Sequence record: MK562505
DNA length: 64,000 nt
Origin: Shigella phage Silverhawkium
Reading direction: 5' to 3' (one strand)
The position numbers were made by a program, and so were the translations under genes. Of this stretch, positions 5,039 to 6,691 are shown in pieces; positions within the stretch are counted from its first letter, which is position 1; the number at the start of each line of letters is the position of its first letter. The notes below the pieces were generated by a model. The model saw nothing but the letters and a program-made list of their open reading frames with translations. It ran no database searches and had not been told where the DNA came from.

Positions 5039-5330
5039 TTAAGAGTCTTTGAAAAGGATTTTTAAGTGATATTTGGTATGGTATGGTACGGTTCGGTGGT
5101 GTATGGTTTGGTTCGGTGGTGTAAGGTGTGGTCCGGTAAAGTATGGGTAGTTAGTCTCAGCTACATTAAAATGAGACTTACCTTTTTAAAAGGTCTTGAA
5201 GAGGGTCTTTTAATAAGGTAGGGTAAGGTTAGGTAAGGTATGGTTGGGTTAGGTATGGGTGGATGGTAGTAGCCACGTTAAAAATCTACCAAGTTTCTAA
5301 AGAGTCTTCTGTTGAGGGTTCTTTATAAAC
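5039..5330 (+). repeat. modular non-coding repeat block A: two units, each AAGAGTCTTT-type motif + about 75 nt GG-periodic tract + hairpin
   Basis: GG dinucleotide every about 5 nt at 5074-5156 and 5217-5265; hairpins agtctca/tgagact (5153-5178) and ggtag/ctacc (5265-5290); related to block at 6430-6691. Confidence 0.7.
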
Positions 5331-5365
5331 AACTTAACAATAAACTAAAGTGTGGAGCGAAATGC

Positions 5366-5954
5366 TATGAAACTGTTAAATATCAAAATCACTGGTACTC
5401 GTCCTTTCCTGAGCCACGCCGATACTCTGTCAGACCCGTTAAACCCTCTGACAAAATATCACAAGTCTCTCTCAAGTAAACGTAAAAAGACTGACGAAGA
5501 CTACGCTCTCTTAGCAGAGAGTCAACTGGTAACCTCTTGTTACTACGACGAGCAACTAGGTTTTGTTATGAACGGTGAGATGATTGAGGCTTGTATCAAG
5601 TCTGGTGCAAAACTCAACAAACTTGGCAAGGTAATTGACCGAGCCATTATGCTGACAGATGTAGTCTTCCCAATGACTATTAAGAACTGTCCAGCAAACC
5701 CACAAGAACTAGCTAAGAACCAAGACTTTATCTATGCGAAGTCTGTTAAGATTGGCACAGCACGAGTTATGAGCTACCGTCCAATCTTCCGTGACTGGTC
5801 TGTAGAGTTCGGCTTGATGTTTGATGAAGAACAAATTACCAAAGAAGAACTCTTGATGGTTCTGGAAAATGCTGGCAACCTTTGTGGTGTAGGTGATTGG
5901 CGTCCACGCTTTGGTCGTTTTTCTGTAGAAGTTATTTCAGAAGGTAATGTTTAA
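5366..5954 (+). CDS. hypothetical protein (about 196 aa)
   Basis: ORF 5352..5954; ATG at 5366 with GGAG 9 nt upstream is the likelier start. Confidence 0.5.
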
Positions 5955-5956
5955 TT

Positions 5957-6397
5957 ATGAATACAAAAGCATTAGCAGCAAAGTTTAGTTACGGTGATAC
6001 TGTATCACACTCTGAGATGGACACCTTCTTAGGTATTGAGAAGCCAACTTATCAAGGTAACATTGTTAAGTACGAAGATGAAATGAAGGCTTACGCGCTT
6101 ACACGCCTAAATCGACTTGAGAAGTTTATTGAGAAGCTTCTTAAAGAAGAGAAGATTTATCTGGTTGCTTCAATGGGTGTTGGTTATCGCGTGGTTGAAC
6201 CCAAACATCAAGCAACTATTGCAAAACGTAAAATGTCTAGTAAGATTGGTCGTGCTTTAAAGCAAGCCACTCAAGCGATTGAGAATGTGAACACTATGGC
6301 ACTGAGTCATCAAGAACGTTCACGACTGATTGAACAGCAAAACCATTTAGCTGCCATGAAAGCTAACATTAACAAACAACGTAGAAAGCCTTTCTAA
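5957..6397 (+). CDS. hypothetical protein (146 aa), charged/helical
   Basis: ORF immediately following previous gene; Lys/Glu-rich. Confidence 0.45.
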   Translation: MNTKALAAKFSYGDTVSHSEMDTFLGIEKPTYQGNIVKYEDEMKAYALTRLNRLEKFIEKLLKEEKIYLVASMGVGYRVVEPKHQATIAKRKMSSKIGRALKQATQAIENVNTMALSHQERSRLIEQQNHLAAMKANINKQRRKPF

Positions 6398-6408
6398 GTT
6401 GATTAGGT

Positions 6409-6431
6409 AGCCTCTTCGGAGGCTCCTTTTT
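6409..6431 (+). terminator. rho-independent terminator
   Basis: Hairpin AGCCTC-ttcg-GAGGCT followed by TTTTT. Confidence 0.55.
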
Positions 6432-6691
6432 AAAAGGTCTTTAAAAGGGTCTTTTAATAAGGCTCGGCAATGTTCGGCATGGTCTGGTATAGTCCGGTGC
6501 TGTTCGGCGTGGTAAGGTGAGGTATGGGTAGTTAATCGGAGCTACATAAAAATTCGATTACATCACTTAAGAGTCTTTGAAAAGGGTTTTTAAGTGAGGT
6601 TTGGCTCAGTATGGTTATGTGTGGTGATGTGTGGTTCTGTAAGGTCATGTTTGGTATGGAAGGATGGCAGTAGCCTTATAAAAAATCTGCC
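6430..6691 (+). repeat. modular non-coding repeat block B: two units paralogous to block A, in shuffled order
   Basis: GG-periodic tracts 6461-6536 and 6597-6668; hairpins taatcg/cgatta and ggcag/ctgcc show compensatory changes relative to block A. Confidence 0.7.

Follow-up and report, generated by a model that had tools for sequence, protein, structure and literature searches.

The region spanning positions 4975-6745 of Shigella phage Silverhawkium (sequence record MK562505) is, taken whole, almost certainly a type II VIPR (Viral Interference Programmable Repeat) locus of the SUSP1 clade. In the 64,000-nucleotide stretch that was analysed (the window), the locus runs entirely on the + strand in the order two vrRNAs, vipr, vap1 and two further vrRNAs (Table 1). 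Judged from their sequence, the four non-coding units are vrRNAs, the guide RNAs of a VIPR system, and all four (4/4) have the same anatomy, in which a long, AU-rich hairpin with G·U pairs is followed by 9-15 in-phase YNNGG pentamers and a 32-nt 3′ element. A sequence-only reading of the same DNA had located four units in two intergenic blocks, and all of them lie where it placed them, on the + strand. It had also described their parts as occurring in different order; every unit runs from hairpin to tract to 3′ element, and the units differ in which hairpin type (a or b) joins which tail type (T1-T4).

VIPR biology has already been described, in preprints of 2026, and the feature is an already known system in its prototype clade. 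The locus leaves the known VIPR mechanism unchanged. It adds one natural VIPR locus with four guides of its own, for which the 1-nt-skip code was recomputed independently and candidate target genes are named in an E. coli chromosomal element. VIPR itself, a form of RNA-guided DNA recognition reported only recently, is a proposed ancestor of CRISPR RAMP proteins.

VIPR is a phage RNA-guided DNA-silencing system, first described in bioRxiv preprints in which Vipr is an early-branching, minimal RAMP protein (RRM core, G-loop and thumb) related to CRISPR proteins, a vrRNA consists of 9-16 YNNGG repeats followed by a 3′ tail that is constant and, in the SUSP1 clade, folds as a pseudoknot, and one accessory gene, vap, is usually present in the locus (10.64898/2026.04.26.720920, 10.64898/2026.04.26.720927). 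In the SUSP1 work, vrRNAs of ~100 nt were seen by small-RNA sequencing and co-purified with Vipr in a pull-down, programmable transcriptional silencing was shown with GFP reporters and by targeting lambda cro/cI, and vap1 raised protection; mutating NN with the Gs kept retargeted or abolished function, and perturbing GGY abolishes silencing (10.64898/2026.04.26.720920, 10.64898/2026.04.26.720927). Cryo-EM of SUSP1 complexes resolves each GGY gripped by Vipr protomers, with the guanines bound individually (10.64898/2026.04.26.720927). For most guides of the SUSP1 clade the target is a satellite phage residing in E. coli genomes, with a baseplate protein in common with its helper phage (10.64898/2026.04.26.720920, 10.64898/2026.04.26.720927).

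The two genes between the blocks tie the locus to this system. Vipr and vap1 are 99% and 97% identical to their SUSP1 counterparts, and a family profile matched one solved structure, PDB 36pp_D 'SUSP1 Vipr protein' (E 3e-78). The window's Vipr has the G-loop and the published contact residues H17, K33, R39, E71, M72, K82, G87, K88, R138, C173, D177, W178 and R179. The preprint's T175 is V in this protein, and the sequence in the PDB likewise reads CGVGDWRPR. Pfam has no family for Vipr or vap1, and in PHROGs both fall in families without known function. Vipr relatives were fetched from 18 close loci and 6 distant loci (37-40% protein identity); in 6/6 of the distant loci, GG-periodic tracts lie directly beside the gene for the Vipr homologue, on the same strand, which pointed to a protein-RNA partnership. 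Homologues of Vipr number >500, come from phages and prophages across many phyla and end in a conserved motif. The sequence-only reading had rightly associated the blocks with a two-gene unit, now identified as vipr and vap1, and had missed the adjacent gene as a protein partner and NN as a guide.

Table 1 Features of the Silverhawkium VIPR locus (positions in the window) and candidate target sites of its guides (positions in satellite loci L035-L038)
Feature	Position	Strand	Description
Putative sigma-70-type promoter	4975..5002	+	TTGACA, 16 nt spacer, TATACT; 11/12 consensus match; upstream of first vrRNA array
Leader hairpin, type a	5034..5070	+	17 bp with G·U pairs; directly 5′ of vrRNA1; RNA fold
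vrRNA1 guide tract	5072..5146	+	15 YNNGG repeats; NN = TT AT AT AC TC GG AT TT TC GG AA GT CC AA AT
vrRNA1 tail, type T1	5147..5182	+	H-type pseudoknot: S1 GTAG/CTAC, S2 AGTCTCA/TGAGACT
Leader hairpin, type b	5186..5213	+	12 bp core; 5′ of vrRNA2; outer CCTT/AAGG extension spans 5181-5218
vrRNA2 guide tract	5214..5258	+	9 YNNGG repeats; NN = AA AG AA TA AA AT TG TA AT
vrRNA2 tail, type T3	5259..5290	+	Pseudoknot: S1 GTGG/CCAC, S2 GGTAG/CTACC
Leader-family hairpin without tract	5298..5325	+	TAAAGAGTCTT...AGGGTTCTTTA; between last upstream tail and vipr ribosome-binding site
vipr	5367..5954	+	RAMP-family protein (195 aa); 193/195 identical to SUSP1 Vipr
vap1	5957..6397	+	Accessory gene; 142/146 identical to gene after vipr in SUSP1
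Terminator-like GC hairpin and T run	6409..6431	+	After vap1; T run overlaps outer stem of next leader hairpin
Leader hairpin, type b	6430..6457	+	5′ of vrRNA3; RNA fold
vrRNA3 guide tract	6458..6527	+	14 YNNGG repeats; internal NN = TC AA TC AT CT AT CC GC TC GT AA GA
vrRNA3 tail, type T2	6528..6559	+	Pseudoknot: S1 GTAG/CTAC, S2 AATCGGA/TTCGATT, one G·U pair
Leader hairpin, type a	6563..6597	+	5′ of vrRNA4; 3′ arm overlaps first repeat
vrRNA4 guide tract	6595..6659	+	13 repeats; internal NN = TT TC AT TA GT GA GT TC AA CA TT
vrRNA4 tail, type T4	6660..6691	+	Pseudoknot: S1 AAGG/CCTT, S2 GGCAG/CTGCC
12-bp inverted repeat and T run	6689..6745	+	AATAAGCTATAA / TTATAGCTTATT; encloses -35 box of next gene's promoter
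vrRNA1 candidate target	L036 7412-7453 and L038 10001-10042		NN match 27/28; 236-aa gene, annotated 'hypothetical' or 'transposase'
vrRNA3 candidate target	L037 10001-10036		NN match 23/24; 107-aa gene, no assigned function
vrRNA4 candidate target	L035 7963-7995 and L038 11073-11105		NN match 20/22; 90-101-aa gene, no assigned function

The repeat tracts stand out sharply from the rest of the window. Among 64,000 bases, only the four tracts, all on the + strand, score at least 6/10 for GG at 5-nt spacing; CC-periodic tracts were found on neither strand of the 64-kb window. The recurrence of GG about every 5 nt described in the sequence-only reading is a strict (YNNGG)n register confined to those four places. 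A weak GG signal at 58189-58237 was considered as a further vrRNA and rejected, being an irregular purine-rich stretch.

Repeat anatomy was determined across 73 unique vrRNAs, comprising those of the window and of 27 related loci. Tracts hold 9-20 repeats and their length is an exact multiple of 5 nt in 70/73 vrRNAs. Across the register, the composition is T90/C10 at Y, two variable positions, G80/T14/A7 and G98, and a purine is never seen at Y. U or A takes the place of the first G in ~20% of repeats clade-wide, and the first G is not strictly required. Such substitutions affect 5/13 repeats of vrRNA4 and, given the reported loss of silencing on perturbing GGY, might weaken its guide, common as they are clade-wide. 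Absence of the element from related phages, which the sequence-only reading had held would count against its proposal, was looked at, and vrRNAs are present in the 27 related loci.

The flanking modules are 92-95% conserved, whereas the NN positions differ between phages, and the variable NN dinucleotides are the guide sequence. The NN guide sequences of this locus are Silverhawkium's own and differ from those of SUSP1. The first (T[A/G]AGG) and last (TATGG) repeats are near-constant, and among 36 well-matched guides just 13 match their target fully at the first repeat and 7 at the last, which suggests that the terminal repeats are mostly scaffold rather than guide. Variable units number only 7 in vrRNA2. 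The locus otherwise resembles that of SUSP1 in having YNNGG vrRNAs on both sides of vipr-vap1 and a pseudoknot tail; it differs in layout, with two vrRNAs upstream and two downstream in place of one upstream and three downstream. Related locus L011 has one tract upstream and three downstream, as reported for SUSP1. Furthermore, vrRNA1 is nearly identical to a downstream vrRNA of related locus L010, indicating that cassettes move between positions.

The 3′ elements form one structural family. All four tail types align without gaps over 32 nt and fold into one common H-type pseudoknot, with stem 1 pairing columns 1-4 with 15-18 and stem 2 pairing columns 7-11 with 28-32, the latter lengthened to 7 bp in T1 and T2. 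In this fold 98.6% of cells are paired, compared with 31-42% when the partners are slid, and compensatory double changes occur at 8/9 pairs, a count behind which stand just four independent tail types. In minor tail variants, G-C or A-U replaces a G·U pair. The hairpin arms quoted in the sequence-only reading (agtctca/tgagact, aatcgga/ttcgatt, ggtag/ctacc and ggcag/ctgcc) are real and constitute stem 2 of the pseudoknot; stem 1 (GTAG/CTAC, GTGG/CCAC, AAGG/CCTT) had escaped it. Its argument that the hairpins are under selection for pairing is borne out by the compensatory changes at 8/9 tail pairs. In related loci, the final tail ahead of vipr is invariably T3, and that of the downstream array invariably T4.

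At the 5′ side of each tract lies a second structure, the leader hairpin. The AAGAGTCTTT/AAAAGGTCTT sequence that had been described as operator-like makes up the 5′ arm of this 14-17 bp G·U-containing hairpin and is not a DNA operator. The basal stems of types a and b differ in sequence, yet both are complementary. Over 14 aligned pairs of the two types, 93.7% of cells are paired and compensatory change is found at 5 pairs, where the comparison of a with b alone is informative, covariation within one hairpin type being uninformative at 92-95% identity. Three G·U pairs are invariant and become A·C mismatches in the opposite-strand transcript, which argues that the leader hairpin is an RNA structure of the + strand; the fold on the opposite strand is weaker. 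The sequence flanking the lone leader-family hairpin that precedes vipr is conserved in all related loci.

The leader hairpins may serve as processing or boundary signals, either as precursor cut sites or as filament stops, since the reported mature size (~100 nt or less) agrees with that of tract and tail once the hairpin is left off. Cutting at the hairpins by RNase III or another host double-strand RNase, or by Vipr/Vap, would then release tract-plus-tail RNAs, and the leader hairpin would also limit filament growth. In the text of one preprint (10.64898/2026.04.26.720920), a keyword search returned no discussion of hairpins, processing or RNases, the tail apart. We put forward tentatively, at somewhat below even confidence, that the leader hairpins together with the lone copy form a hitherto undescribed signal for the maturation of type II VIPR arrays, with the terminal repeats as scaffold.

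The guides' matches lie in a chromosomal element of E. coli. The window gene at 20003-20809, which adjoins the tape-measure gene, has a 74-77% identical 'phage baseplate protein' in 474/5426 complete E. coli genomes. In these chromosomes the baseplate gene belongs to an element of ~11 kb, present in ~9% of complete E. coli genomes, that carries serine recombinases, a Dam methylase, an HNH endonuclease, small unassigned genes and a tape-measure gene. Its tape-measure and baseplate genes are related to the phage's own, and it has integrated in the DUF72 gene adjoining yecD or elsewhere. In gene content and integration this element matches the preprint's satellite, for which it is a candidate.

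Matches of the clade's guides to this element depend on the skip length. When clade guides were compared with three satellites, 26/210 vrRNA-satellite pairs reached at least 80% NN match with a 1-nt skip, while skips of 0, 2 and 3 gave 0, 0 and 1 pairs, respectively, and shuffled guides gave 2. With a sample of five satellite loci, and counting variable internal repeats only, 36/70 guides reach at least 85% NN match. For Silverhawkium's own guides, the first satellite tested (L034) gave background only, and targets emerged only with further satellite variants sampled. The resulting matches (Table 1) compare with maxima of 17-23 NN positions for shuffled guides on the same loci, and like those of SUSP1 they are 1-nt-skip matches to an E. 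coli chromosomal element with tape-measure and baseplate genes. By calculation from the gene coordinates, the skipped base is codon position 3 (wobble) in all three targets. Neither Pfam nor PHROGs has a family for any of these three satellite proteins.

Genome counts were made with short queries built from the guide NN, with the skip bases filled from one satellite; on this basis, the vrRNA1 site occurs in at least 189 E. coli genomes (match 41/42), the vrRNA3 site in 39 (at least 99% over the 34 of 36 query bases aligned) and the vrRNA4 site in 43 (match 34/36). These matches show, by computation, that at least three guides, vrRNA1, vrRNA3 and vrRNA4, are directed at the satellite element in E. 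coli chromosomes. For vrRNA2, no target above background was found in the five satellite loci, and an exact-pattern scan of IMG/VR with all nine units returned 69 scattered environmental matches, chance-like for an AT-rich 18-base pattern. None of the guides has a self-target above background within the 64-kb window, and the five satellites contain no GG-periodic tracts of their own.

Transcription, processing and silencing in Silverhawkium are presumed here by carry-over from the 99%-identical SUSP1 system. By this identity, the arrays would be transcribed and yield RNAs of ~100 nt, each consisting of a repeat tract and a pseudoknot tail, on which one Vipr protomer would sit per YNNGG repeat, the protomers forming a helical filament. 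The protein would hold GGY and present the two N bases for pairing, such that the filament would read either strand of double-stranded DNA as NNxNNx, passing over one base per repeat and needing no PAM. An R-loop triplex would then form and block transcription. We infer that VIPR would in this way serve the phage against a parasite liable to exploit the phage's tail genes, by silencing it.

Other accounts of the blocks explain less of this evidence. The sequence-only reading had suggested that the GG spacing would allow two-quartet G-quadruplexes, and a G2N3 pattern over 9-15 repeats does formally permit two-tier quadruplexes, which in RNA or single-stranded DNA might regulate the expression or replication of neighbouring genes without a dedicated protein. 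This we regard as very improbable. Quadruplexes need neither a fixed 5-nt register nor a pyrimidine after every GG, nor tract lengths that are multiples of 5 in 70/73 vrRNAs, and they fit poorly with a first G that is U or A in ~20% of repeats. They also leave the target information in the variable NN unexplained, and in the SUSP1 structures GGY is gripped by Vipr with its guanines bound one by one. Similarly poor prospects attach to the tracts as cis-acting or sponge RNAs for a ring-shaped RNA-binding protein, in the style of TRAP/trp leader or CsrB, that would control translation of the flanked genes. The 5-nt-spaced conserved triplet does resemble the 11 (G/U)AG repeats of TRAP, and one tract ends ~75 nt upstream of the vipr ribosome-binding site. 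However, homologues of TRAP and CsrA are absent from the encoded proteins, the one flanked by the tracts being Vipr; a repeat number of 9-20 has no fixed ring fit; and the NN match foreign genes far above chance with a 1-nt skip only. A TRAP-like ring protein was our initial idea and was dropped on the PDB 36pp match.

The blocks could also be DNA elements for a DNA-binding protein, with AAGAGTCTTT-type motifs as operators or the tracts as origin iterons. Their position near ligase and other replication genes would suit this, as would the occurrence of the motif twice per hairpin, but we assign it a practically negligible probability: the motif copies form a hairpin that needs the + strand G·U pairs, three of them invariant, and folds less well from the opposite strand, the tail stems covary via G·U intermediates, and the tracts are strictly strand-asymmetric, with CC-periodic tracts nowhere in the window. 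From the earlier suggestion of structured RNAs or cis elements, the family of structured non-coding RNAs therefore stands and the DNA operator does not.

As a type II VIPR locus, the region invites comparison with the effector backbones of Class 1 CRISPR-Cas, in which Cas7-family RAMP proteins form filaments on crRNA. In both, a guide RNA is coated by a polymer of RAMP proteins that carry a G-rich loop and a thumb; the latter breaks guide-target pairing periodically, and a constant structured handle caps the variable guide. On the other hand, VIPR is without CRISPR repeats, spacers and cas1/cas2, and in the region itself no CRISPR array (identical direct repeats with unique spacers) with cas1/cas2 is present. 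The VIPR period is 5 nt with 2 pairing bases, in contrast to 6 nt with 5 pairing bases in CRISPR; VIPR also skips one target base per 3, silences rather than cleaves, and is phage-encoded. A further parallel is the TRAP/trp leader of Bacillus. There, as in VIPR, copies of a conserved trinucleotide are set 2 nt apart and each copy is bound by one protein subunit. TRAP, however, forms an 11-mer ring unrelated to Vipr, the spacers in its RNA are devoid of information, and the RNA on which it acts is its own transcript.

The promoter-like site at 4975-5002 may drive the first array, as its match to consensus implies, and the leader sequence 3′ of it is conserved across related loci. No promoter was found for the downstream array itself; a terminator-like hairpin lies between vap1 and that array, which would require read-through or another promoter. 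The inverted repeat at 6689-6745 is likely, from its sequence, to be the end of the vrRNA array, and a promoter-like site at 6711-6739 would belong to the next gene. Neighbours of the blocks are a ligase gene, an HTH regulator and genes without assigned function, with other replication genes close by.

The window as a whole comes from a Felix O1-like myovirus (Ounavirinae). Over the 2 kb that contain the units, Shigella phages Sf17-19 match at ~92.5%, and >200 Felixounavirus, Mooglevirus and Suspvirus records match as well; for the upstream block alone, no match in the phage collection exceeds 88.7%. Even with permissive E-values, Rfam assigned no family, the best matches reaching 15-23 bits against gathering scores of 34-60. 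Genome papers on Felix O1, wV8 and UAB_Phi87 mention other repeats and 608-bp terminal repeats and not these tracts. The wV8 annotation covers part of the tracts as 'DR_4', and that of tootiki marks them as an unnamed repeat_region.

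Guide cassettes appear to move as whole units between phages and between array positions, because the vrRNA1 guide RNA in the upstream array of the window (5072-5146, + strand) has a near-identical counterpart in the downstream array of L010, another locus encoding a Vipr relative. The internal units of this L010 vrRNA (4252-4321) match at 100% the satellite site that is also targeted by window vrRNA1.

The satellite itself is an integrated element of approximately 11 kb that, in many E. coli strains, sits in the DUF72 gene adjoining yecD; in L035 and L038 it is integrated at other sites. 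Its tape-measure and baseplate genes are related to those of the window's phage, and some copies are interrupted by IS2, IS3 or IS21 insertions.

Positions of the satellite element, the likely end of the downstream vrRNA array and distant guide tracts
Feature	Sequence	Position	Remark
Integrated element, ~11 kb	L034	about 5900-17350	
Integrated element, ~11 kb	L036	about 1540-16950	
Integrated element, ~11 kb	L037	about 3490-15000	
12-bp inverted repeat (AATAAGCTATAA / TTATAGCTTATT), then T run	window	6689-6745	
GGY/NN tracts	L033	2880-2965, 3553-3785, 4250-4318	similar tracts in L029, L030, L032

Four distant VIPR loci (L029, L030, L032 and L033) have a higher GC content and encode Vipr proteins 37-40% identical to that of the window. 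Their GGY/NN tracts, up to approximately 260 nt long, directly abut the start and stop codons of vipr and of the accessory gene vap. AU-rich leader hairpins are present in the SUSP1 clade, whereas the distant loci lack them.

At the likely end of the downstream vrRNA array in the window, the inverted repeat and T run enclose the -35 box of the promoter of the next gene (6780-7160). The predicted array terminator and the predicted promoter seem to overlap.

Several other features of the window were recorded. A cluster of 26 tRNA genes (34725-39326) lies entirely on the - strand; the reported numbers for Felix O1 and wV8 are slightly lower, at 22-23. A 27-nt repeat, TTTTAGAATCTCCAGTTTAGGATTGTT, occurs in 14 copies between 51828 and 58020; read on the - strand (AACAATCCTAAACTGGAGATTCTAAAATG), it is a leader that successive small genes on this strand have in common and that supplies a start codon and a GGAG ribosome-binding site; several copies are adjoined by GC hairpins (GGGGCTTGCTTGCCCC) and TTGACA-like boxes. 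Nearby, the stretch at 58189-58237 was rejected as a YNNGG tract, being an irregular purine-/G-rich sequence (gggaggaaggggagtaagaggggatggtggggctgg) with a weak periodicity score.

In the D11 repeat family (50557-50811), a unit rich in CTTAACA/TAACAAG occurs five times at 31-nt spacing. The arrangement resembles an array of iterons, and the region could serve as an origin or bind a regulator. Three 142-nt direct repeats (43354-43996), approximately 250 nt apart and 65-72% identical, fall within a 376-aa open reading frame (42977-44107), and therefore imply that the putative protein contains a repeated domain.
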